Shown here: piece after piece, positions 13,333 to 62,262 of the stretch
Position numbering within the stretch: position 1 is the stretch's first letter
Layout: each line of letters begins with the position of its first letter
Assembly (NCBI GenBank): GCA_964627195.1
Contig: CAZVJU010000003.1
Span: forward strand, 14,854 to 78,853
Origin: an uncultured Gammaproteobacteria bacterium
Lineage (GTDB): Bacteria; Patescibacteriota; Microgenomatia; UBA8517
Length of the DNA: 64,000 nucleotides
Direction of reading: 5' to 3'
Program-made: the position numbers and the translations under genes
Notes under the pieces: model-generated
The model's database searches: none
What the model saw: the letters and a program-made list of their open reading frames with translations, nothing else
Told to the model about the DNA's origin: nothing

Positions 13333-13959
13333 ATGTATAGTGAAGTATTTTTTGACGTCGAGACAAAAAAGTTATTTGGGGATATTGAGGGAGACGATCC
13401 GGGAGATCTGGGAGTTTCAATAGTATCGGTTTATTCCAGGAAAATTGATGTAAACTCGAGCGTCAGTGGTGAGCAAAGTCGAACCATCGAAGGACAAATT
13501 CAAAGCTTTTGGGAAAAAGATTTTGCTAAAATGTGGCCAATTTTCCAGGAAGCTGATCGGATAATTGGCTATAACTCTCTGGGATTTGATGTTCCTACTT
13601 TACGGCCGTATACAAATTTTCCATTCGCAAAACTTCCTCACTTTGACATCATGGCAAGAGTGAAAGAAGTCTATGGTCATAGAATTCCGATGGATGCAAT
13701 TGCCAAAGAAACACTGGACAGGGAAAAGACAGATGTAGGTTTAAACGCTGTTTTTTACTGGCAAAAAGGCGACGCGGAAAGCCTGGAAAAACTCCAGAAA
13801 TATTGCGAGGCAGATGTGTTAATTACCCGAGATATCTACGATTTCGTCCTCAAAAATAAGCATCTTCTTTTCAAAGACAAATGGAATACCATCCGAAAAG
13901 TCGAGTTAGACTTTTCGTATCCCAAAGAAGCCACCGAAAAACAAGAAGGTTTATTTTAA
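13333..13959 (+). CDS. RNase H-fold 3'-5' exonuclease-like protein (YprB/RNase_H_2-like)
   Basis: FFDVET, IGYNSLGFDVPTL and YCEADVLITRDIYD blocks resemble DEDD-type exonuclease motifs. Confidence 0.5.
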   Translation: MYSEVFFDVETKKLFGDIEGDDPGDLGVSIVSVYSRKIDVNSSVSGEQSRTIEGQIQSFWEKDFAKMWPIFQEADRIIGYNSLGFDVPTLRPYTNFPFAKLPHFDIMARVKEVYGHRIPMDAIAKETLDREKTDVGLNAVFYWQKGDAESLEKLQKYCEADVLITRDIYDFVLKNKHLLFKDKWNTIRKVELDFSYPKEATEKQEGLF

Positions 13960-16585: not shown

Positions 16586-16659
16586 TGAGGGATCTGCTAA
16601 TGGTAGGCAAGCGGACTCTGAATCCGTTAATCTAGGTTCGAATCCTAGTCCCTCAGCCA
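16586..16659 (+). tRNA. tRNA-Gln (anticodon CTG), CCA encoded
   Basis: 74-nt cloverleaf. The acceptor is TGAGGGA/TCCCTCA, the T-arm is CTAGG-TTCGAAT-CCTAG, the anticodon loop is CTCTGAA, and it ends in a discriminator G followed by CCA. Confidence 0.85.
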
Positions 16660-16663
16660 AATC

Positions 16664-17194
16664 ATGAAAATTATAATTAAACTCAAATATTTATTCCTCT
16701 TATTCTTCTTTCTGTTTGCCCTATTGTCAAATTATTATTTAGGTTCAAGAAATATTCAAAACGCTGCAAATGACAATTTCAATGGAGGAATATGTTACGC
16801 ATGTCAATCATGTAAAGACGTATATGAAATATGTCAAAAGAGATTTGGTTTTGATATCTATAATCTTATTTACTCTCTTATTCCTATTTCTTTTGTAATT
16901 GCTCTATTTAATAACATATATTTAAAAAGCAACCTATATAGAACGATTAAACAAAGTATATTATTGGGAATGATATGGTTAATATCTATTGAAATAATAG
17001 TAAGGATATTCCAGATCCCGGTACTTTATACTCATTTCCTTGAGGGTAGACAAAGTTTACATTATCAATTCTTTACATTATTTCCCGAATTTATTGTGAT
17101 TTTTTCTATATTTCAATCAATTATTTCAGGTGTATTTGGTTATTTCGTAGGTAGCATTACAAAACATTTCATATTAAGAAAAGTAGTAAAATAG
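16664..17194 (+). CDS. Hypothetical AT-rich membrane protein immediately downstream of tRNA-Gln
   Basis: 176-aa multi-TM protein with very low GC. It starts 5 nt after the tRNA. Confidence 0.35.
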   Translation: MKIIIKLKYLFLLFFFLFALLSNYYLGSRNIQNAANDNFNGGICYACQSCKDVYEICQKRFGFDIYNLIYSLIPISFVIALFNNIYLKSNLYRTIKQSILLGMIWLISIEIIVRIFQIPVLYTHFLEGRQSLHYQFFTLFPEFIVIFSIFQSIISGVFGYFVGSITKHFILRKVVK

Positions 17195-17228
17195 GTTCTA
17201 ATAGCGTACAAAGTGCGCAGCCAGTAAG
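17195..17228 (+). repeat. About 34-nt 3'-end element, copy D (gttctaatagcgtacaaagtgcgcagccagtaag)
   Basis: Matches the consensus of copies at 20167, 21781 and 23020. It starts immediately after a stop codon. Confidence 0.6.
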
Positions 17229-17253
17229 AATTGGAGAGAGGTCGGGAGGTAGC

Positions 17254-17337
17254 GCTTTCCGCGCCCGCCTCCGCGGAAAGCGGTAATCACCCGGTAATCA
17301 CCCGGTAATCACCCGGTAATCACCCGTCAGGTGATAT
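17254..17337 (+). repeat. GC-rich hairpin (gctttccgcg...cgcggaaagc), then 4 tandem copies of the 11-mer cggtaatcacc, ending in a REP-like palindrome atcacccgtcaggtgatat
   Basis: Read directly from the sequence. The REP unit is the inverted partner of the units at 18061 and 18107. Confidence 0.7.
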
Positions 17338-17340
17338 ACA

Positions 17341-17369
17341 TTGACACAACTCGGAAATAGACATAGGAT
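17341..17369 (+). promoter_or_regulatory. Putative promoter for the transposase gene (TTGACA-N17-TAGGAT)
   Basis: A perfect -35 with a weak -10, ending 10 nt before the ATG. Confidence 0.3.
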
Positions 17370-17378
17370 ATTATTAAT

Positions 17379-18044
17379 ATGTCTGGAAAAAGAAATGTCA
17401 TATTTGCCAAAAACGAAATCTACCACCTTTTTAATCGTTCAAATGCTAACGAATCGATTTTCGTAAAGAAAAAGGAAATCACAAGATCTCTTAACTTGAT
17501 GTCATTTTACAGATTTAATCAAAGTTTGAGATTTTCTTTTTTTGACAGACTTCCTGAAGAACAAAAAGATAAGTATTTGGAAAAGACTTTAGGAAACGTA
17601 CCAAATGTTGACATACTTTCCTACTCCTTAATGCCTAACCACTTTCATTTACTCATAAAGCAAACAAATGAAAAAGGAATAAAAAATTATCTCTCTAATT
17701 TCCAGAACAGCTTTGCGAAATATTTTAATATAAAAAATAAAAGGTTTGGAACTCTTTTTCAGAGACCTTTTAAGGCTAAACATGTAGAATCTGACGAACA
17801 ACTTCTTCACATATCAAGGTACATCCATCTTAATCCTGTTACATCCTATATGATGGAGTTTGAGAATTTGAGAAGTAGTGACTTGACCTCTTTACAATTA
17901 TATTTAGATAAAAAGAAGTCTTGGGTTAATACTGATCTAATTATTAATTTAATAGGTTCGGTATCAAAATACGAAAAATTTGTGAAAGATCATGTTGACT
18001 ATCAAAGAAAATTAAGTAAAATCAAGCACTTGTTATTAGATTAG
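17379..18044 (+). CDS. IS200/IS605-family Y1 HUH transposase, REP-associated (RAYT-like)
   Basis: The HUH motif LMPNHFHLLI is present, along with the C-terminal catalytic-Tyr block LFQRPF...ISRYIHLNPV, which parallels LWQRSY...YI.NP of TnpA IS200. The gene is flanked by inverted REP-like palindromes. Confidence 0.8.
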   Translation: MSGKRNVIFAKNEIYHLFNRSNANESIFVKKKEITRSLNLMSFYRFNQSLRFSFFDRLPEEQKDKYLEKTLGNVPNVDILSYSLMPNHFHLLIKQTNEKGIKNYLSNFQNSFAKYFNIKNKRFGTLFQRPFKAKHVESDEQLLHISRYIHLNPVTSYMMEFENLRSSDLTSLQLYLDKKKSWVNTDLIINLIGSVSKYEKFVKDHVDYQRKLSKIKHLLLD

Positions 18045-18130
18045 TAAGGTGTGTGAACCAATATCACCTGACGGGTGATACGTAGATTAGTAAGGTGTGT
18101 GAACCAATATCACCTGACGGGTGATACGCC
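18039..18130 (+). repeat. 2 x 46-bp tandem direct repeat (gattagtaaggtgtgtgaaccaatatcacctgacgggtgatacg), each containing a REP-like palindrome
   Basis: The two copies differ only at their last 2 nt. The first copy overlaps the transposase stop codon. Confidence 0.8.
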
Positions 18131-18152
18131 TCAAGAGCTAATATATCAAAAT

Positions 18153-18173
18153 ATATCACTCCCGGCGTGGATT
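18153..18173. repeat. REP-like variant tatatcactcccggcgtggat, followed by a tRNA T-loop-like ttcgaacc
   Basis: Same TATCAC...GTG family, with an imperfect right arm. Confidence 0.45.
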
Positions 18174-18195
18174 CGAACCTAATAAGACTTAATTC

Positions 18196-18870
18196 CTAAA
18201 GTTTGTAATTCGAAACTATCTCGTAACTGGCGTAGGGCACGACTTCATCATCAAAAAGGCACATTTTTATTTCCGGCCAGCAATTATCTAAAGCTTTGAT
18301 TTCTTGAATCGAGTACCACTTCACTCCTTCCAGTAACTTCATTGATTCTTTTTCGGTAGGGGTTATTTCAACCTGAAACATGACCTGACCGTCATCAAAA
18401 AGGGATTCACCATCAAGGGTTTTAACGATTTTAGCGTGAAGAGATTTATATTCAAATCTGACTGAGGGGATTTCAATCCCAGTATTCTCTTTAAAGAGTC
18501 TCACTAAGGCAGCTTCCATCGGTTCACCAAACATAGGCCGGCCACTGGGGAAGTTATAGAAATTAATTTTGGCGGTAGGGTGACTTTTTAGTAAATAGTT
18601 GCCGTGACCATCGTGAACAATAAAGCCACAAAAAAAGGTTTTTATTCCCTGCTCACTCAGATCAGATAATTCATAGTTATAAATTTCCTTAATTCCGGTT
18701 GGGGTAATAGCATAGGTATTGTCTTCTTTTTCGATAAATTGATTCTCCAGCAACTGGTTCAGGTGGAAGACTATATTGTTTTCGAAGTTATATCCCCGGG
18801 TTAAAGCCGCATATTTCTGGTTATTTTGTTGGGCAAGCCTTTTAAGTAATACCTTTTGGGTACGGTGCAT
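18196..18870 (-). CDS. wHTH-Nudix-like protein (N-terminal winged-helix-like region plus degenerate Nudix box), paralog 1
   Basis: The block GRPMFGEPMEAALVRLFKENTGIE fits a degenerate Nudix box Gx5Ex7R..E..GI. Much of it aligns by eye with 24670..25344, which has the same 224-aa length. Confidence 0.5.
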   Translation of the reverse strand: MHRTQKVLLKRLAQQNNQKYAALTRGYNFENNIVFHLNQLLENQFIEKEDNTYAITPTGIKEIYNYELSDLSEQGIKTFFCGFIVHDGHGNYLLKSHPTAKINFYNFPSGRPMFGEPMEAALVRLFKENTGIEIPSVRFEYKSLHAKIVKTLDGESLFDDGQVMFQVEITPTEKESMKLLEGVKWYSIQEIKALDNCWPEIKMCLFDDEVVPYASYEIVSNYKL

Positions 18871-19136
18871 AATTTAGTGTAGTTTACTACTCTAGATACG
18901 TTCCTTGGTAGTTGATAAATTACCGCCAAGTATGGAAAACTTAATGGGACAATTAACCGAAGAGGAGCTAGTCAAACACTTATCGCCGGTTGAAAAATGA
19001 CTTTATCGGTCAAGTGATAGGCAAGAGCAGTTGAATATTCTCTGTAATTCAAGTTGGGTTAATACTATCGGCCTTATCATTGAAAAGACGGCCGGACTTG
19101 GCCACCCAACTGATATAATTTTAGGAGGATAAACTT

Positions 19137-19505
19137 ATGTTTAAACAAATGTTTGCTAACTGCATTTTAGTCAAAGATTTTGAAAAATCTTTAGATTTTT
19201 ATCAAAACACATTAGGTTTGGAGCTAAATACCAGAGAGGGTAACTTTGCCAATTTTAAAATTGATAATATCGAGTTGGCGATCATGCAGCAAGACCAAGC
19301 CACCGAAATGCTGCCTAAAGATTTCATGAATAGCGGTGGAAGTGTACTGCTTTGTTTTCAGGTAAGTGACGTGGATAAAACTTGTTCGGACTTGCAAGCC
19401 AAAGGTATAAAGTTTATTTCCGGTCCCAAAGTGACTTCCTGGGGGCAAACCGTAGCCTATTTCCTTGACCCGGACAATAATATTTGGGAAATCTCCAAAA
19501 AATGA
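19137..19505 (+). CDS. VOC/glyoxalase-bleomycin-resistance family protein, paralog 1
   Basis: 122-aa VOC fold pattern. It is preceded by an AGGAGG RBS and is paralogous to 25447..25824. Confidence 0.65.
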   Translation: MFKQMFANCILVKDFEKSLDFYQNTLGLELNTREGNFANFKIDNIELAIMQQDQATEMLPKDFMNSGGSVLLCFQVSDVDKTCSDLQAKGIKFISGPKVTSWGQTVAYFLDPDNNIWEISKK

Positions 19506-20134
19506 TTAAAGCAATTATTTTTGATTACGATGAAACGCTGGTGCAAACTCTTGATGCCCGGATCCAGGCTTATATCCAGTTGGCTAAACAGGAATATCAC
19601 TTTGATTTAAAAGAGGAGGCGATTAGAAAGGCTTTTGGATTACCATACGAGGTGTTTATTAAAACCCTTTTTAGCGAGGTTGATAGCGTCGAGAATATTA
19701 TTGGCAACTATCAAAAAATCACTCCCAATTTTCCCAATAAAGCCTACCCCCAAGCAGTGGAGACCGTCAATAAATTATTGACCAAATATTTGGTGGGCAT
19801 TATAAGCGGCTCAAGGCGAAAAATGATGATAGAGGATTTACATAAGCTCCAATTCCTGGTGGATAAATTCTTTTATATTCAGTCTGGGGAAGACACTGCT
19901 GTTCATAAACCAGATCCAAAAGTGTTTGACCCTTTAATTCAAAAGCTAAAGACTTTGGCTATTAAACCGAAAGAAGCTTTATATGTCGGCGACGACTTGC
20001 GGGACCGTGAAGCCAGCACCAAAGCGGGGATGCAATATATCGCAATTGCCAATCACACCACAGAGGCTAAGGTGTTTGAAAGTCAGAAGATTCCTTATGT
20101 CTTGAGTTTCGATGAACTTAACCGTAAATACTGA
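19502..20134 (+). CDS. HAD-superfamily hydrolase
   Basis: Motif I is IIFDYDETL and motif IV is VGDDLRD. The start at MIKAII overlaps the VOC stop as ATGA. The ORF track places an upstream Met at 19484. Confidence 0.75.
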   Translation: MIKAIIFDYDETLVQTLDARIQAYIQLAKQEYHFDLKEEAIRKAFGLPYEVFIKTLFSEVDSVENIIGNYQKITPNFPNKAYPQAVETVNKLLTKYLVGIISGSRRKMMIEDLHKLQFLVDKFFYIQSGEDTAVHKPDPKVFDPLIQKLKTLAIKPKEALYVGDDLRDREASTKAGMQYIAIANHTTEAKVFESQKIPYVLSFDELNRKY

Positions 20135-20166
20135 AAGCAGGGTATGTCCGGTTACCCATGTAGTAG

Positions 20167-20195
20167 GTTCGAATAGAGTCCACGCAGGCCAGCAA
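20167..20195 (+). repeat. About 34-nt 3'-end element, copy A (degenerate: gttcgaatagagtccacgcaggccagcaa)
   Basis: Shares the GTTCGAA...GTCCAC...CAGCC.AGCAA blocks with copies B, C and D. Confidence 0.5.
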
Positions 20196-20371
20196 ATTCA
20201 AATTTCCAGAAAAGAAAATTTGCTACCGATATTGTATCCTTATGTTTCCATATTAAACTGGTTCGGCCCCCCAATTGACCTTTTCTTTTGAGCTACCATA
20301 ACTTTAAATGAATATTACTTGCAACAAGGATATTTGTTTGATTACGTTACCTATATAAGAATGATGTAATG

Positions 20372-21274
20372 TTAACGTTCCTTACTCAATCCAATGCGAA
20401 TTGAGGCTTGACCTTCTTTCACTACCTTATCAATAACAATAACTCGTTCCATAGGCTCCATTTCTCTTACACTTCTAGCCTCATTTATCTGAAAAACACC
20501 ATTTTCAATCTCTCTTAATGCGGCAATTGTATTTGCAATCATGATGCCATTGTCGCCATCTTCTGCATAATATAAATACGGCCGATGATAGACGAGACCA
20601 TCTTCTCTGCTTCCTCTTCGTAATCCATATAATTTCAAGTTATTACCTTCTTTTCTTAACAACAAAGAATGAATTAGAGTCGGAATTTCATGCAATATCA
20701 TAGTCGCATTTACGTCTGATTCTGCTAGGATATTTTCAATCCAGTTAATTGTAAAAAGCACTCGATCATCTCTATTGAAATCTTGCGTACATTTTTTAAT
20801 ACCTAACCTTTCCGCAATTTCTGGAATTCGTTTACTCGTTTTTGGACTTTCCTCCAGGACCCACGATAAATTAGCGCAAACCGCTAACCCAGTAGTATCA
20901 GTAAAGCCAATGGCTGGGCTTTCTGTTTTATCCCAAGCCTGTGTTTGTTCAGCAAAAACGAATTGAAACTTAGTTTCACTTAATCCGCACGCATCAAATA
21001 CCTCAAACAAACTGATATTTGAAGAGTAAGTTGCTGTTAGTAACTGGCTATTTGTTAGAAATGTATGTTTAGTTAGAGATAATGAATACCTTTCGTCCAT
21101 TATCTTCATTTCTTCGAAATAACAGTCGTCAAAATTTGCGATTAACATCCCCATCGTTGTTCCAAAATCAGCGTAGTGTCCGGGTTTATGATAATTTCTC
21201 ATTTGCTCAAGTGCAGATGAGACATTACCTAATGCTATAGGTTTATTGTGAATATATGATAAGACAGTAGACAT
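20372..21274 (-). CDS. Hypothetical protein (300 aa), unrecognised family
   Basis: Long clean ORF with composition distinct from the neighbouring AT-rich small genes. No motif recognised. Confidence 0.4.
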   Translation of the reverse strand: MSTVLSYIHNKPIALGNVSSALEQMRNYHKPGHYADFGTTMGMLIANFDDCYFEEMKIMDERYSLSLTKHTFLTNSQLLTATYSSNISLFEVFDACGLSETKFQFVFAEQTQAWDKTESPAIGFTDTTGLAVCANLSWVLEESPKTSKRIPEIAERLGIKKCTQDFNRDDRVLFTINWIENILAESDVNATMILHEIPTLIHSLLLRKEGNNLKLYGLRRGSREDGLVYHRPYLYYAEDGDNGIMIANTIAALREIENGVFQINEARSVREMEPMERVIVIDKVVKEGQASIRIGLSKER

Positions 21275-21459
21275 GATGAAGAATTATAAACAAAACAGAC
21301 TAAGTCTGCAAACTGTTTAAATTGAGGAAGAGTTTGATAATTAATTGTCGCCAATAATTCGTTTCAAGGTATGAAGTATTTCAAAAATAGATTTAATATT
21401 CTTCCAGATGTGGTTCCACCTACGGACAAGCTCGCCAGCCAAGATGTATAATTGAATAA

Positions 21460-21780
21460 ATGAAAAAGTCTTTGTTAACTTCACTATTGTTTGCATTTAT
21501 ACTTCTCAATCTCAGTTGGTTTTATGCAAAAAGTGTTACTTGCAGTGGTGGTTCACTTTCAGTAATCAGTTTTGCTAATGGTTGCCAGCCAGGACAAATA
21601 GTATATTATGTCCGCGGTTTTCCTATTGAATTCTTTTGGAGTAACAACACCGGCTTTGTACTTTTTTGGTATTTAATTGACTATTTAATATTTTTTATTT
21701 TTGTTCAATTGTTATTAACAATTATTAGGTTATTTAAATTAAAGCTATCAGATAGTTCTAATGATAAGTTAAGAAAATAA
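21460..21780 (+). CDS. Small hypothetical membrane protein
   Basis: 106 aa with 2 TM segments. It is followed directly by 3'-element copy B. Confidence 0.35.
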   Translation: MKKSLLTSLLFAFILLNLSWFYAKSVTCSGGSLSVISFANGCQPGQIVYYVRGFPIEFFWSNNTGFVLFWYLIDYLIFFIFVQLLLTIIRLFKLKLSDSSNDKLRK

Positions 21781-21814
21781 GTTCGAACAGCGTCCACAGT
21801 TCGCAGCCAGCAAT
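21781..21814 (+). repeat. About 34-nt 3'-end element, copy B (gttcgaacagcgtccacagttcgcagccagcaat)
   Basis: Starts at the nucleotide after the TAA stop. It has an internal inverted repeat cgaac...gttcg. Confidence 0.65.
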
Positions 21815-21898
21815 GAACAAATTATCTCGGTTTGCCAAGCTAATACAAACCCGGAATGGTAAATTTAACACGCTAAAATTACGAAGTATAATTTAATT

Positions 21899-22690
21899 GT
21901 GAGACGTTTTTTACTGATAGTTACATTTCTGATTTTTTACGTCTTGTTTCTGAGATTACCTGTCTTAAAAACAAAGGTGCAAGGAAACAATTTCTACTAT
22001 AGGGATTTATTGGGATTTATTTATACACGACATTCTAGTTGTGGATGGATAGGGCCATGTTCTCATTGGGATGTGCCATTATTAGGTATACACAGTTTCA
22101 CATTTAAAACTTTAAAGTATAGTGGGTTGGATTGTTTAGATGCTTACGCAAAGTCAAACACTGCCCTTTACTATTTAGGCGAAAAACAACATCAGGTCAA
22201 AAGCCCCGCAACTTTTGAGTTAATGAATAATATGTATGCTAAAGATTCAGCAAACGTTTATAAACTTTGCGAACTAGAAGTTTTAAACATCGCCGAGCCG
22301 GATCGGTTTATAACAGTAGGGCCTGTTTGCTCAAAAAGCACCACCAGTGTTTACTGCTTTCAAAAAGAAGTAGAAAATGCAGATATAAATTCTTTCGAAC
22401 ATGTGTGGAGAGGATATTACAAAGATAAAAACAAGATTTATTTTTTAGGTAAACCATTAGGTGAGATCGATCCTGATACTTTCGAGTTATTGTCATGGGG
22501 ATACCTTAAAGATAAAAATGCCATTTTCTTTTTCGACGAGAATGCAAAGGAGTTAACCGAATTAAAGAGCGCGGATAAAACCACTTTTAAAGTATTAACT
22601 GAAATGTATGCAGTTGATGCTTCACACGTTTTCAAAAGCGGGATTGTGTTATCACATACAAATCCTAAAATCTTTAAAGTACCTCAATGA
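21899..22690 (+). CDS. DKNYY-repeat family protein, N-terminal TM anchor
   Basis: Repeated YxxDxNxVY/F blocks: AKDSANVYKL, YKDKNKIYFLG, LKDKNAIFFFD and YAVDASHVFKSG. GTG start. Confidence 0.55.
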   Translation: MRRFLLIVTFLIFYVLFLRLPVLKTKVQGNNFYYRDLLGFIYTRHSSCGWIGPCSHWDVPLLGIHSFTFKTLKYSGLDCLDAYAKSNTALYYLGEKQHQVKSPATFELMNNMYAKDSANVYKLCELEVLNIAEPDRFITVGPVCSKSTTSVYCFQKEVENADINSFEHVWRGYYKDKNKIYFLGKPLGEIDPDTFELLSWGYLKDKNAIFFFDENAKELTELKSADKTTFKVLTEMYAVDASHVFKSGIVLSHTNPKIFKVPQ

Positions 22691-23019
22691 CACTAAACGG
22701 TTCCAGACCGGCCTGCTCAGCAAATAATATTAAGACAAAAACATCCGTACGAATTTGCTATCATTTGCTTATGGGTAGAGTACAGAATTTTTTGAGGCCA
22801 AGTATTAGAAGAATAATATTTGCGTTAATAATATGGCTTGTATTGTGGCTTGTGTCCTATTTTTTTACCGCCAAATGTTTCTTAGCTGACTGTATAAGCG
22901 ATGGTCAAATGACTTCCTGCTGTAGTTCTCTTGAAAATAAAATCGCTGAACTTTTCTACACTATCAAGTTATCTTTTCCAGTAATCGCATACTTATTGTC
23001 TTGTAAATTAACAAAATAG
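22687..23019 (+). CDS. Small hypothetical membrane protein
   Basis: 110 aa. It overlaps the upstream gene by 4 nt and is followed directly by 3'-element copy C. Confidence 0.35.
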   Translation: MTLNGSRPACSANNIKTKTSVRICYHLLMGRVQNFLRPSIRRIIFALIIWLVLWLVSYFFTAKCFLADCISDGQMTSCCSSLENKIAELFYTIKLSFPVIAYLLSCKLTK

Positions 23020-23052
23020 GTTCGAACTCTGTCCACAGTTCGCAGCTCAGAT
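23020..23052 (+). repeat. About 34-nt 3'-end element, copy C (gttcgaactctgtccacagttcgcagctcagat)
   Basis: Starts at the nucleotide after the TAG stop. It has an inverted repeat cgaact...agttcg. Confidence 0.65.
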
Positions 23053-24523: not shown

Positions 24524-24642
24524 ATAGAAGTCCACAGCTAAAGCCGTGGTCCTTCGAGCTTCATTCGCCTTAGGCGAATGAATTTTCAATGATTCAATTC
24601 ATCCACGTCCAAAGACGTGAACTTCTTGAATTAGCTTAAAAG
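24524..24642 (+). repeat. MITE-like multi-hairpin element, copy 1 (119 nt)
   Basis: Terminal inverted repeats agaagtccac / gtgaacttct. Internal hairpins are ccacagc..gccgtgg, cattcgcc-tta-ggcgaatg and cacgtc-caaa-gacgtg. Copies also at 27473 and 62196. Confidence 0.75.
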
Positions 24643-24669: not shown

Positions 24670-25344
24670 TCAATCTAGAATATAATCTGATACAAATTCA
24701 TATTGTAAGTAATTGGCTCTATTATTTTGAACTAATAAGATATCTAACTCTGGCCATTTATTAGTTAGGTCTCTGATTTTCTCAAGGTTCATCCATTGAA
24801 TCTGTCTTCCCAGTTCCATTTTCGATCTATGGCTAGGATTTACGATTACTTGATAAATTGCAAAAGCGTCATCAAATAAAACTTCACCGGTTGATGTTTT
24901 TATAGTCTTTAAATGTAAGCTTAAATACTTGAAATTATTTGACTCAACTTCTAGACCAGTGTTTTCATAGAAAATACGAATTAAAGCTTTTTCAGTGTTT
25001 TCCCCAAAATGAGGCTTTCCACTCGGTAAGTTATAGAAATTTGTTTTTCCTCCCGGATGCTCCTTTACCAAAAAGTCATCTCCTGATTTACACACGAAGC
25101 CGATAAAAAATGTTTTGAAACCAGTGTCAGTTAATGAACTTAAATCGTATTTAGCAATTTCTTTAATTCCCACGGAACTAATCTTGTAAATATTGCTTGT
25201 CTTTTCTATAAATCCTTTTTTCAGGAGTTGTTTTAAGTGGAAGACAATATTATCTTCAAAGCTATAACCCCCTGTTAAAGAAGAATACTTTTGGTTGTTA
25301 TTTATTAACAGCCTCTTAAGAAATATCTTTTGGATTTCATGCAT
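24670..25344 (-). CDS. wHTH-Nudix-like protein, paralog 2
   Basis: 224 aa, alignable by eye across most of its length with 18196..18870. Same divergent arrangement with a VOC gene. Confidence 0.5.
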   Translation of the reverse strand: MHEIQKIFLKRLLINNNQKYSSLTGGYSFEDNIVFHLKQLLKKGFIEKTSNIYKISSVGIKEIAKYDLSSLTDTGFKTFFIGFVCKSGDDFLVKEHPGGKTNFYNLPSGKPHFGENTEKALIRIFYENTGLEVESNNFKYLSLHLKTIKTSTGEVLFDDAFAIYQVIVNPSHRSKMELGRQIQWMNLEKIRDLTNKWPELDILLVQNNRANYLQYEFVSDYILD

Positions 25345-25446
25345 AAATAGTAAGCTTAATTATAAGGCAACTTGGTGTAGCCGACTACCCTAGATAAATT
25401 AGTGTCAAAACGGTATTCTAGCTATGTTTGGAAGGAGGTGAGACCC

Positions 25447-25824
25447 ATGTTTAATAAACTATTCGCTGTTTGCCTTTTGGTTAATGATTTTGAAAAATCT
25501 TTTAAGTTTTATAAGGAAACCTTAGGACTAAAAGTAAAATCTCAAGAGGGAAAATTTGCTAATTTTAAATTAGGGGAAACCGAACTTGCTGTTTTCCAGA
25601 AAGATGAAGCAATAGCGATGTTCCCCAAGGAACATATGGGGAGTGGAGGTGGTGTTTCAATTGGTTTTCAAGTAGATAATGTAGAAAGAACTTGTAAAGA
25701 GTTAAAATCAAAAGAGGTAGAAATTTTTGAAGGACCAAAAAAAACTCCCTGGGGTCAGGAAGTGGCATATTTCAAAGATCCTGATGCAAATATCTGGGAG
25801 ATTTCTGAGCCTTTTGAAGAGTAA
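25447..25824 (+). CDS. VOC/glyoxalase family protein, paralog 2
   Basis: Homologous to 19137..19505. The start at MFNKLFAV is preceded by a GGAGGTGA RBS. The ORF track gives a longer ORF from 25402. Confidence 0.65.
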   Translation: MFNKLFAVCLLVNDFEKSFKFYKETLGLKVKSQEGKFANFKLGETELAVFQKDEAIAMFPKEHMGSGGGVSIGFQVDNVERTCKELKSKEVEIFEGPKKTPWGQEVAYFKDPDANIWEISEPFEE

Positions 25825-27472: not shown

Positions 27473-27621
27473 ATAGAAGTCCACGGCTTTAAGCCGTGGT
27501 CCTTCGAGCTACATTCGCCACAGGCGTTTGAATTTTCAATGATTCAATTCATCCACGTATAAGCAAAGCTTGGCACCGCTTCGCGTTGTAAAGACGTGGA
27601 CTTCTTGAATTAGCTTAAAAG
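27473..27621 (+). repeat. MITE-like multi-hairpin element, copy 2 (149 nt, with a 31-nt internal insertion)
   Basis: Same termini and hairpins as copy 1. The first hairpin is perfect: ccacggc-tttaa-gccgtgg. There is an extra ataagcaaagcttggcaccgcttcgcgttgt inside the third hairpin. Confidence 0.75.
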
Positions 27622-60705: not shown

Positions 60706-62196
60706 ATGCAATTAACACAAAAGGGTAAAGTTTACGCGTTAATTCTTCTCACCTCAGCACTTTTTTCGATTTCTGTAGTTACTTTCGGGTTTTTCCCCTA
60801 TTTTGGCCTCTCCGTATCCTTTATTGCTTTTATCTTTTTAGCCTACTATATAAAGAAAGATAAAACTCCGCTCGCTAAAATGTTCTTTCTTATTGCTCTT
60901 ATTCTGTCTGTCTTTTTAGCAATAAGAAGCGAGGGTGGGATAATTCTTCTTAATCTTGGCGCAATTTTCTACTTCGGAGCGCTTACACTACTATCCGAAA
61001 AGGAAAGTAGATTGGATAATTGGATTTATATATTTATAGCGCCTTTTTTTCTTTTTTCAAAAAGTCTTTTTACCAAAAATGACTATAATTTTGAATTAAA
61101 AAATTCTTTGACAAGAAAAGAAGGAGCTGAAAAAGTCATAAATTCACTTGTCGTAACCCTTGTAACCATATTAGTATTGGTCATTATTATCCCACTATTG
61201 GCTTCCGTAAACCCTTTCTTCGAAAAAATAGTTAGTAATCTGATAGACACACTTAGGCTACGGGATATTAAAATTACGGAAAAGTTATTCGAATGGAGTC
61301 TGAGGCTGGCATTTTTCTTTTTTCTCGTACTAATCGTCCCCAAATTGGCAACTTTTGTTAATAAGAAGTCTGGTCTTTCAGTCCTTTCATATCCGTCTTT
61401 TAATCTTTTAGTACCGAAAATTGCAGTAGCCTTGGTATTATCATTATTTTTTGTAACTCAACTTCAATTATATTTTTCTTCCGCCCAAACGCTGCAGGAT
61501 TTGGGGTACACCTACTCAAAATACACAAGAGAAGTTTTTGCTCAACTTTCGTTTGTGGCCGTTATTATCTTAGGCCTGATATATAACGATCAAACGAAAC
61601 AAAAAATAAATAGAAATTTAACCGTAGCGCTGGCAATTCAAGGGCTATTTCTAACATTTATGGCCTACAAAAGCGTTTATGAATATAGTATGGCCTGGGG
61701 TTTTACTTATAAAAGACTATTCGGTTTTACTATTGCCACTTGGATTTTGGGTGTATTTGCCATCTATCTGTTTACTTTTTACAGAAATCTTGGAAAAGGC
61801 ATATTCATCGTCCGGACTCTCATTTTCTCAGGACTAGTTCTTATTGCAGTAAACGCTTTAAACTTTGACTACCTCATCTATCATTTTCGAAAAGCTTCAA
61901 CTGGACAGGGAGTTGATCACAAGTATCTCACACGACTCTCAAGCGACTCCCTTTCATACAAAAATCAGCTTTACGAAATTACCCAGATATCCTCGGAAAC
62001 ACTAAGTGAGTCAGAAAAAAACCAAGCCGCCTCATACGGTTTATGGATGCTGCTTTATAAGATCGAACGATTACAGGAAAAATATGACAAACTTGATGTT
62101 CGAGGTTTTAACCTGCTGGAATATTTGCAATATCGGCAAATCAAAGATATAGACACCCAAATAGTCAGAAATAAATATGGGTTGCCTTTCCGCTAA
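60706..62196 (+). CDS. Polytopic membrane protein (DUF4153/4173-like), hypothetical
   Basis: 496 aa with more than 10 TM segments. Its stop codon overlaps the start of MITE-like copy 3. Confidence 0.35.
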   Translation: MQLTQKGKVYALILLTSALFSISVVTFGFFPYFGLSVSFIAFIFLAYYIKKDKTPLAKMFFLIALILSVFLAIRSEGGIILLNLGAIFYFGALTLLSEKESRLDNWIYIFIAPFFLFSKSLFTKNDYNFELKNSLTRKEGAEKVINSLVVTLVTILVLVIIIPLLASVNPFFEKIVSNLIDTLRLRDIKITEKLFEWSLRLAFFFFLVLIVPKLATFVNKKSGLSVLSYPSFNLLVPKIAVALVLSLFFVTQLQLYFSSAQTLQDLGYTYSKYTREVFAQLSFVAVIILGLIYNDQTKQKINRNLTVALAIQGLFLTFMAYKSVYEYSMAWGFTYKRLFGFTIATWILGVFAIYLFTFYRNLGKGIFIVRTLIFSGLVLIAVNALNFDYLIYHFRKASTGQGVDHKYLTRLSSDSLSYKNQLYEITQISSETLSESEKNQAASYGLWMLLYKIERLQEKYDKLDVRGFNLLEYLQYRQIKDIDTQIVRNKYGLPFR

Positions 62197-62262
62197 TAGA
62201 AGTCCACATCTTATGCCGTGGTCCTTCGAGCTACATTCGCCTTCGGCGAATGAATTTTCATT
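62196..62262 (+). repeat. MITE-like multi-hairpin element, copy 3 (truncated: left arm plus first two hairpins)
   Basis: atagaagtccacatcttatgccgtggtccttcgagctacattcgccttcggcgaatgaattttca. It diverges where the convergent gene 62258..63025 ends. Confidence 0.65.

Follow-up and report, generated by a model that had tools for sequence, protein, structure and literature searches.

Staphylococcal cassette chromosome (SCC) composite islands enter the 3′ end of rlmH/orfX, a conserved housekeeping gene, by means of Ccr serine recombinases and form tandem arrays, some of them without recombinase genes, bounded by repeated integration-site sequence. Integrons stack small co-oriented accessory modules, each ending in a conserved site, at a fixed docking site by a strong promoter. 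Large serine integrases such as those of A118/Listeria innocua, Bxb1 and phiC31 act on a quasi-symmetric attP site, each arm of which has its outer hexamer at 18 nt from the centre, and on an attB site in which the motif lies 5 bp closer; attP and attB have only a few bp in common, and the integrase gene comes to lie beside attL. Islander-type islands, the work of tyrosine integrases, lie between a tRNA gene that remains functional and a co-oriented repeat, and can form tandem arrays (PMC4383910). The Islander paper (PMC4383910) describes serine recombinases as not known to target tRNA genes, and the TIGER paper counted 14 of 297 at tRNA genes computationally, left these cases unconfirmed and asked for proof. 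Here we analyse a repeat element of about 36 nt that occurs four times downstream of a tRNA-Gln gene in a stretch of 64,000 nt of contig CAZVJU010000003.1 (hereafter the window), a low-GC (38%) sequence of candidate phyla radiation (CPR)/Patescibacteria type.

Our analysis suggests, with a probability of about 0.78, that each copy of the element is an attR-type junction of CPR/Patescibacteria integrative islands inserted by a large serine recombinase (LSR) at the tRNA-Gln 3′ terminus. The identity of the element is well supported, and on sequence grounds the four window junctions most likely bound four integrase-less cargo modules of acquired accessory genes. Read in this way, the locus has all the traits of SCC listed above and differs from it in target gene, site sequence and host clade, the promiscuity of Ccr being documented. 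It has the site architecture of the large serine integrases; unlike theirs, its target would be a tRNA gene 3′ terminus whose T-loop provides the outer attB motif, its right-hand attB arm is not conserved, and its tandem attR-type junctions stand without an integrase gene. It is arranged like an Islander-type array, but the enzyme family is another and its repeat does not copy the 3′ segment of the tRNA. It resembles an integron in layout, but has no IntI, no attC hairpin with R and L boxes and no attI, and many of its modules hold several genes in both orientations. The tRNA gene and the four copies are:

tRNA-Gln(CTG), 16586..16659, plus strand, called by ARAGORN and Rfam: anchor of the array and putative left arm of attB (T-loop TTCGAA to the discriminator G, then CCA).
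Copy A, 17188..17223, plus strand, AAAATAGGTTCTAATAGCGTACAAAGTGCGCAGCCA: the most diverged full-length copy, with a hexamer-to-G spacing of 18 nt.
Copy B, 20164..20191, plus strand, TAGGTTCGAATAGAGTCCAC-----GCAGGCCA: degenerate, a partial profile match (E = 0.011), member of repeat family D3.
Copy C, 21774..21809, plus strand, AAAATAAGTTCGAACAGCGTCCACAGTTCGCAGCCA: perfect consensus.
Copy D, 23013..23046, plus strand, AAAATAGGTTCGAACTCTGTCCACAGTTCGCAGC: consensus, the final copy of the array.

The tRNA-Gln(CTG) gene at 16586–16659, overlooked in an earlier sequence-only reading of this DNA, lies on the strand of copy A, 0.5 kb upstream, and all four copies are confined to the 6.5 kb downstream of it. 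The copies themselves, which that reading had reported on the plus strand, were recovered independently by a repeat finder run without prior information, as family D1 (copies A, C and D over 43 nt) and family D3 (all four over 20 nt); the exact consensus 23-mer and 34-mer each occur once in the window, against 0 expected from shuffles, and a profile made from the copies found no further one in the remaining 57 kb. Copy B lacks 5 nt (AGTTC) and carries one extra G. Across 30 distinct copies, the conserved stretch is ~36 nt long and runs from AAAATAG through CGCAGC(CA): positions left free in the search pattern are still 77–97% conserved; seven extra bases, AAAATAG, are conserved upstream; and conservation drops sharply right after CGCAGC(CA).

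Stop codons stand directly before copy A (TAG, 17192–17194), copy C (TAA, 21778–21780) and copy D (TAG, 23017–23019), and copy B starts 32 nt past the TGA of a HAD-family gene. Given that the conservation includes AAAATAG, the stop triplet belongs to the element. A TAG or TAA triplet is present in 21 of 31 copies and ends a long open reading frame (ORF) in just six of them, namely three window copies and those of loci L025, L037 and L038; any ORF that enters the element in that frame simply terminates at its built-in stop. The earlier description of the stop codons stands for all four copies, but the element is not a feature of gene 3′ ends; the defining link is instead with an upstream tRNA-Gln gene and an LSR. 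The three small membrane proteins encoded before copies A, C and D have no sequence similarity to one another, so the repeat is not a local gene duplication, and the element recurs in about 30 distinct copies in other low-GC, CPR-like contigs.

The geometry of the sites, together with the complete islands described below, is regarded as the strongest evidence for an LSR attachment site. We express spacing as the number of bases between the TTCGAA-like hexamer (TTCKAA) and the discriminator G (G73):

P arms (the element): 18 nt in all 7 cases.
P′ arms (in the terminal codons of the LSR gene): 18 nt in all 5 cases.
tRNAs (T-loop): 13 nt in all 12 cases.

With 18 nt on both arms, the reconstructed attP is symmetric about G73, and its two arms carry dyad-symmetric motifs. 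The same motif lies exactly 5 bp nearer the centre in the tRNA than in the P arms, and the T-loop hexamer of the window tRNA-Gln is itself 13 nt from G73. The zinc-ribbon-domain motif of serine integrases occupies positions 16–24 in attP half-sites and 11–19 in attB half-sites (PMC3783163); with G73 as centre, our hexamers end at position 24 in P and P′ and at position 19 in the tRNA. In its 5-bp offset and in its outer limit, the motif therefore matches the serine-integrase rule, which supports the reading of these sequences as LSR att sites. The core common to element and tRNA could be narrowed to positions 71–74 (C-A/C-G-C), and the inner parts of the P and P′ arms are weakly similar. The 3′ part of tRNA-Gln (TAGGTTCGAATCCTAGTCCCTCAGCCA) resembles both ends of the element, TAGGTTCGAA on the left and CAGCCA on the right, and between those ends the element is 5 nt longer than the tRNA.

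An LSR gene is found beside one junction in L051, L067, L068 and L014, and none is present in the window array. L051 belongs to the same species as the window: the two are 99.95% identical over 2.1 kb, up to the last base of tRNA-Gln, and diverge completely exactly at 16660, the tRNA 3′ end. There, L051 carries an antisense ORF, with its stop codon inside the tRNA, that encodes the C-terminal part of an LSR; its homologues are CPR proteins of ~530 aa with the domains Resolvase, Recombinase and Zn_ribbon_recom, many of which likewise run antisense into a tRNA 3′ end. In two complete islands (L067 and L068), the LSR gene is antisense to the tRNA and abuts its 3′ end; the tRNA is a tRNA-Ser by sequence in L067 and has a CCGCCA-type end in L068, both being cut by the contig end and hence without an ARAGORN call. 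After the LSR gene come 9.7 kb (L067) or 5.6 kb (L068) of cargo, including a Shedu nuclease, a deaminase and a helix-turn-helix (HTH) regulator, and the far end of each island is an element-like copy in the tRNA's orientation, AAAATAGGTTCTAAC-NNN-GTCAATGGTTCG-CCGC(CA), with core genes beyond. In the partial island L014, an LSR N-terminus (68% identical to P0012) is antisense at the left end of the contig, and 5.1 kb to its right an element of the tRNA-Gln type precedes GIY-YIG and peptide deformylase genes; in L082, tRNA-Ser(TGA) and a Ser-type element flank an insert that has no integrase gene. The element's right end varies with the target tRNA, being CAGC(CA) for Gln and CCGC(C) for Ser, and the left part is common to both.

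L063 carries an LSR remnant at tRNA-Ser and LSR gene remnants at other tRNAs, and L069–L071 sit at tRNA-Asn; the wider LSR family thus uses several tRNAs, and no element of the present type was found in L063 or L069–L071. The islands of L081–L083 extend past their contig ends. The far end of the L051 island was sought via the contexts of three window proteins, and all other array-spanning contigs proved collinear with the window. Two loci considered as free attP forms, L065 and L066, were rejected as decayed junctions. In L051 and L068, conserved LEP codons near the LSR C-terminus spell AGGTTCTAAC, ~68 nt inside the gene from the tRNA end, which is the same motif in the same orientation as the outer part of the P arm; this may be an accessory binding site or a coincidence.

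A genome collection and a metagenome collection were scanned with one degenerate pattern. The former gave four CPR matches (Woesebacteria, Gottesmanbacteria and unclassified Patescibacteria) and three high-GC chance matches (~4 expected); the latter yielded 36 loci. About 31 of these are true copies in low-GC sequence, and the window itself accounts for two of them. Viral contigs held neither a copy of the element nor a relative of the LSR tail. With ARAGORN run on all loci, a tRNA-Gln gene (TTG or CTG) was found upstream on the same strand in 9/9 independent loci with enough upstream sequence (the window, L004, L006/L033, L013, L015/L039, L018, L025, L037 and L040), at a distance of 0.24–4 kb, or 6.4 kb for window copy D, and no other tRNA type showed such a link. 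As each genome has an estimated two or so tRNA-Gln genes among ~45 tRNA genes, 9/9 is far beyond chance. A P-type site was also sought downstream of the window's other tRNA gene, tRNA-Glu, and none was found.

Arrays recur in other genomes: three to four copies lie behind tRNA-Gln in L004/L036, and there are two in L020 and two in L042. Content polymorphism at element boundaries, as the sequence-only reading expected of cassettes, is seen between the window and L038, L026 and L027, and within the species in L051. A homologue of the 176-aa protein that precedes copy A stands directly before an element copy in L038 with other genes after it; L026 retains the element and ~150 nt of downstream flank of copy D (75% identity over a 195-nt alignment) with different upstream sequence; the right flank of copy A is found again in L027; and L004 and the window are syntenic upstream of the tRNA and have nothing in common downstream. 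Inserts at tRNA-Gln loci can be as short as 240–655 nt with one small ORF, and the cargo at element loci includes toxin-antitoxin, NUDIX and VOC genes and small membrane proteins. Genes for GIY-YIG proteins (~90 aa) are the sole recurrent and the commonest family among 149 neighbouring ORFs and directly follow the element in six loci.

Several further observations concern these flanks. The GIY-YIG gene starts 35–160 nt past the crossover and is always co-oriented (L001, L004, L014, L020 twice, L033 and L082); it comes after tRNA-Ser in L082 and after the element elsewhere, and is the first gene of a module in some loci and outside the island in others. L020 (1008–1073) and L036 (1124–1201) have long forms of the element with a 25-nt or 47-nt insertion exactly at the centre (GT|CCAC), which creates a CTGTGG/CCACAG stem. 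In the Woesebacteria lineage (L004, L006, L020 and L034), a conserved flank of ~55 nt (TTCGACTCCTTTCAGTCGCTCATGGCCTTCGGCCC...) follows both tRNA-Gln and elements, in L004 after the tRNA and at 2400–2460 and 1300–1360; related GTCGAA-rich repeats are seemingly inserted in frame in a conserved gene (L004 4090–4869 vs. window 13333–13959).

The mechanism that we propose draws on published structural work on LSRs. The conserved left part of the element (AAAATAGGTTCKAAC-NNN-GTCCACAGTTCG) would be the P arm of the island attP; its last 4–6 nt (CAGC, often CAGCCA) would be the crossover core in common with the tRNA end; and to the right of the core would come the sequence that happened to follow the tRNA when the island inserted. 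The attP as a whole would read AAAATAGGTTCGAAC-NNN-GTCCACAGTTCG-CAGCCA-AGTTGAACGGATGGGCTCGTATGC. Integrase subunits would read the TTCGAA-like hexamer through the zinc-ribbon domain, 18 nt from the centre in both arms of attP and 13 nt from the centre in attB, where the tRNA T-loop would supply it; cleavage and exchange would take place at a dinucleotide that includes discriminator G73, and the tRNA body would thus be left untouched. After integration, the integrase gene would lie antisense against the tRNA (attL) and the P arm at the far end of the island (attR). A small gene of 71 aa beside the integrase gene is a candidate for a directionality factor. The array most likely formed when islands with several P-type sites excised by pairing attL with the nearest of them: the integrase core would depart cleanly, the distal modules would remain directly after the tRNA, and repeated rounds would stack modules. 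Alternatively, integrase-less modules may have been inserted in trans.

Several points weigh against this interpretation. We know of no canonical serine integrase that uses attL or attR as an integration target, and a further assumption is therefore required for a tandem array without integrases. L067 and L068 have a single P site each, and no island was found to carry an internal one. Copies A and B, nearest the tRNA, are more decayed than the distal copies C and D, the opposite of what simple newest-is-proximal accretion would give. The window contains no LSR gene or remnant, no trace of P′ occurs directly after the tRNA in the window or in any of the nine loci, and the right-hand (B′) arm of attB has no conserved hexamer. 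The sole difference between L051 and the window in 2.1 kb, G70 for T70 (window position 16653), produces an A3–G70 mismatch 3 nt to the left of the putative crossover, and a 2-bp exchange at G73/C74 does not predict it. Finally, the recombination itself is deduced from sequence.

Between the tRNA and copy D lie four modules:

Module 1, 16660..17187, plus strand: one gene (16664–17194) for a 176-aa membrane protein, from the ORF list.
Module 2, 17224..20163, both strands: Y1 transposase (IS200/IS605-type, with flanking hairpin repeats), NUDIX-like winged helix-turn-helix (wHTH) protein (minus strand), VOC/glyoxalase protein and HAD hydrolase.
Module 3, 20192..21773, both strands: 300-aa protein without an assigned family (minus strand) and 106-aa membrane protein (plus strand).
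Module 4, 21810..23012, plus strand: DKNYY-family protein (263 aa) and 110-aa membrane protein.

The module 1 gene begins 5 nt past the tRNA, its final codons and stop extend into copy A, and its product matched no Pfam family; the family labels of module 2 come from precomputed Pfam assignments on identical contigs together with repeat analysis. The Y1 transposase gene (17379–18044) is bordered by 33-nt inverted repeats (17319–17351 vs. 18047–18079 and 18093–18125), and the region around it (17281–18128) contains tandem repeats, an 11-mer in four copies (CGGTAATCACC, 17281–17326) and a 46-mer in two (18037–18128); spacing in population contigs, 106 nt in L046 vs. 152 nt in L044, suggests that the 46-mer is present once or twice, depending on the contig. 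A tRNA 3′ fragment without its 5′ half (reverse complement TTAGGTTCGAATCCACGCCGGGAGTGA) stands at ~18150–18182 on the minus strand, between the repeats of the transposase and the NUDIX-like gene, and may be the scar of another, oppositely oriented integration. The divergent pair of a 224-aa NUDIX-like wHTH gene (minus strand) and a VOC/glyoxalase gene (plus strand) occurs twice, inside module 2 (18196–19505) and 1.6 kb past the array (24670–25824), and a VOC homologue is present in L013 as well. In population contig L090, the HAD-family gene just upstream of copy B has lost its 3′ end to a 122-nt deletion (window 20008–20129), a sign of continuing cargo decay. Beyond the array, an ~86-nt repeat with an internal hairpin is present in three copies of ~90% identity (24524–24608, 27473–27558 and 62196–62260); the same-population contig L054 departs from window synteny at 27519, within one of these copies, and the repeat may be another recombination hot spot.

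A bolder view of the same sites, which we consider doubtful, is that CPR bacteria possess an integron-like gene-shuttle built on a serine integrase, with the invariant 3′ end of tRNA-Gln (and tRNA-Ser) as its fixed docking site. Each module would end in a P-type half-site that could serve as an alternative excision partner, allowing the integrase core to pick up or drop modules; transcription from the tRNA promoter would read through the stacked modules, which often have no promoter; and the small GIY-YIG genes often found right after the crossover could belong to the system.

A related but improbable explanation is an integron-like system in which integrase-less circular cassettes, with one P-type site each, are inserted singly at the tRNA-Gln 3′ end by the LSR or another recombinase acting in trans, and are not remnants of larger islands. 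The clean junctions directly after the tRNA in nine loci, the 240–655-nt inserts with one small ORF and a cassette-type cargo, the one-sided conservation that ends at the crossover, and the 55-nt flank of L004, repeated after both the tRNA and an element, are all as such a system would predict. For known serine integrases, however, attP must have two P-type arms, and attL is not used again; the loci showed neither a circular cassette nor a cassette-only attP; and the complete islands hold cargo and integrase together. The sequence-only reading was right that the element delimits co-oriented modules of accessory genes and that any site-specific recombination here would be of a non-integron kind: neither IntI nor a tyrosine recombinase was noted in the translations of 63 window ORFs of at least 120 aa, there is no attI, and no attC-like structure is present, the element being ~36 nt long rather than the 57–141 nt of attC, without the R″/L″/L′/R′ boxes (RYYYAAC ... 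GTTRRRY) and with a stem that lacks covariation.

It is very unlikely that the modules are tRNA islets of tyrosine integrases and that the element is the tRNA 3′ fragment (direct repeat) displaced by successive integrations. Tyrosine integrases are known to form tandem arrays at tRNA genes (PMC4383910), and the site downstream of a tRNA, the co-orientation and the T-loop-like GGTTCGAA and CGCAGC(CA) ends all recall such a tDNA fragment. The 5 nt by which the element exceeds the tRNA between T-loop and acceptor end, its non-tRNA middle (NNNGTCCACAGTT), which is nevertheless kept across genomes, the mere 6–8 nt in common with the local tRNA, and the absence of covariation between the left part and the local T-stem are inconsistent with a tDNA fragment. 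No recombinase appears among the 25 most frequent Pfam families listed for the 149 neighbouring ORFs or among ten large ORFs scanned singly, Phage_integrase included, and the recombinase that was found at the tRNA is a serine recombinase.

The chance is slimmer still that the element acts at the RNA level, as a terminator, processing signal or stabilising stem-loop at mRNA 3′ ends. Three window copies start right after a stop codon, several modules begin directly after the tRNA, which makes co-transcription possible, and the 5-bp cgaac...gttcg stem can form in copies C and D; the sequence-only reading had placed it in B and C, correctly for C and wrongly for B. Among the 30 sequences, no compensatory change supports this stem: a common G-to-T variant (GTTCTAAC) breaks pair 13–30 in 14/30, and a T-to-G/C variant on the opposite side breaks pair 14–29 in 7/30. 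No T-tract follows the weak stem, so that the earlier judgement that this is not an intrinsic terminator holds; Rfam matched nothing except the tRNA; and copies lie downstream of tRNA-Gln only, not at gene ends in general. Least probable of all is a link to a mobile GIY-YIG nuclease gene or an IS200/IS605-type transposase, with the element as target or flank, akin to repetitive extragenic palindromes (REP) and their RAYT transposases: a GIY-YIG gene is the commonest neighbour of the element and a Y1 transposase with hairpin repeats follows copy A, but the window array has no GIY-YIG gene, that of L014 lies outside the island beside a core gene, copy A alone adjoins the transposase, and the element is neither palindromic nor dispersed.

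Attachment by an LSR at a tRNA 3′ terminus, our favoured reading, bears on both the enzymes and their hosts. Our literature search found no description of this CPR LSR family or its arrays, and nothing relevant on CPR gene cassettes, integrons or GIY-YIG genes linked to tRNA. Genome engineering relies mainly on serine integrases for the insertion of large DNA, and these enzymes have been regarded as avoiding tRNA genes, which they are rarely seen to target; the CPR case appears, by testable att features, to be a serine-integrase-like island, and offers a coherent family from uncultivated CPR bacteria in which attP arms, attB and the position of crossover could be read from sequence. The use of the tRNA T-loop as outer recognition motif would yield testable enzyme/site pairs whose targets are near-universal sequences. 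Another question is how modules lacking an integrase could accumulate under the strict directionality rules of serine integrases. The same reading would account for a hot spot of strain-variable accessory genes in these very small genomes.

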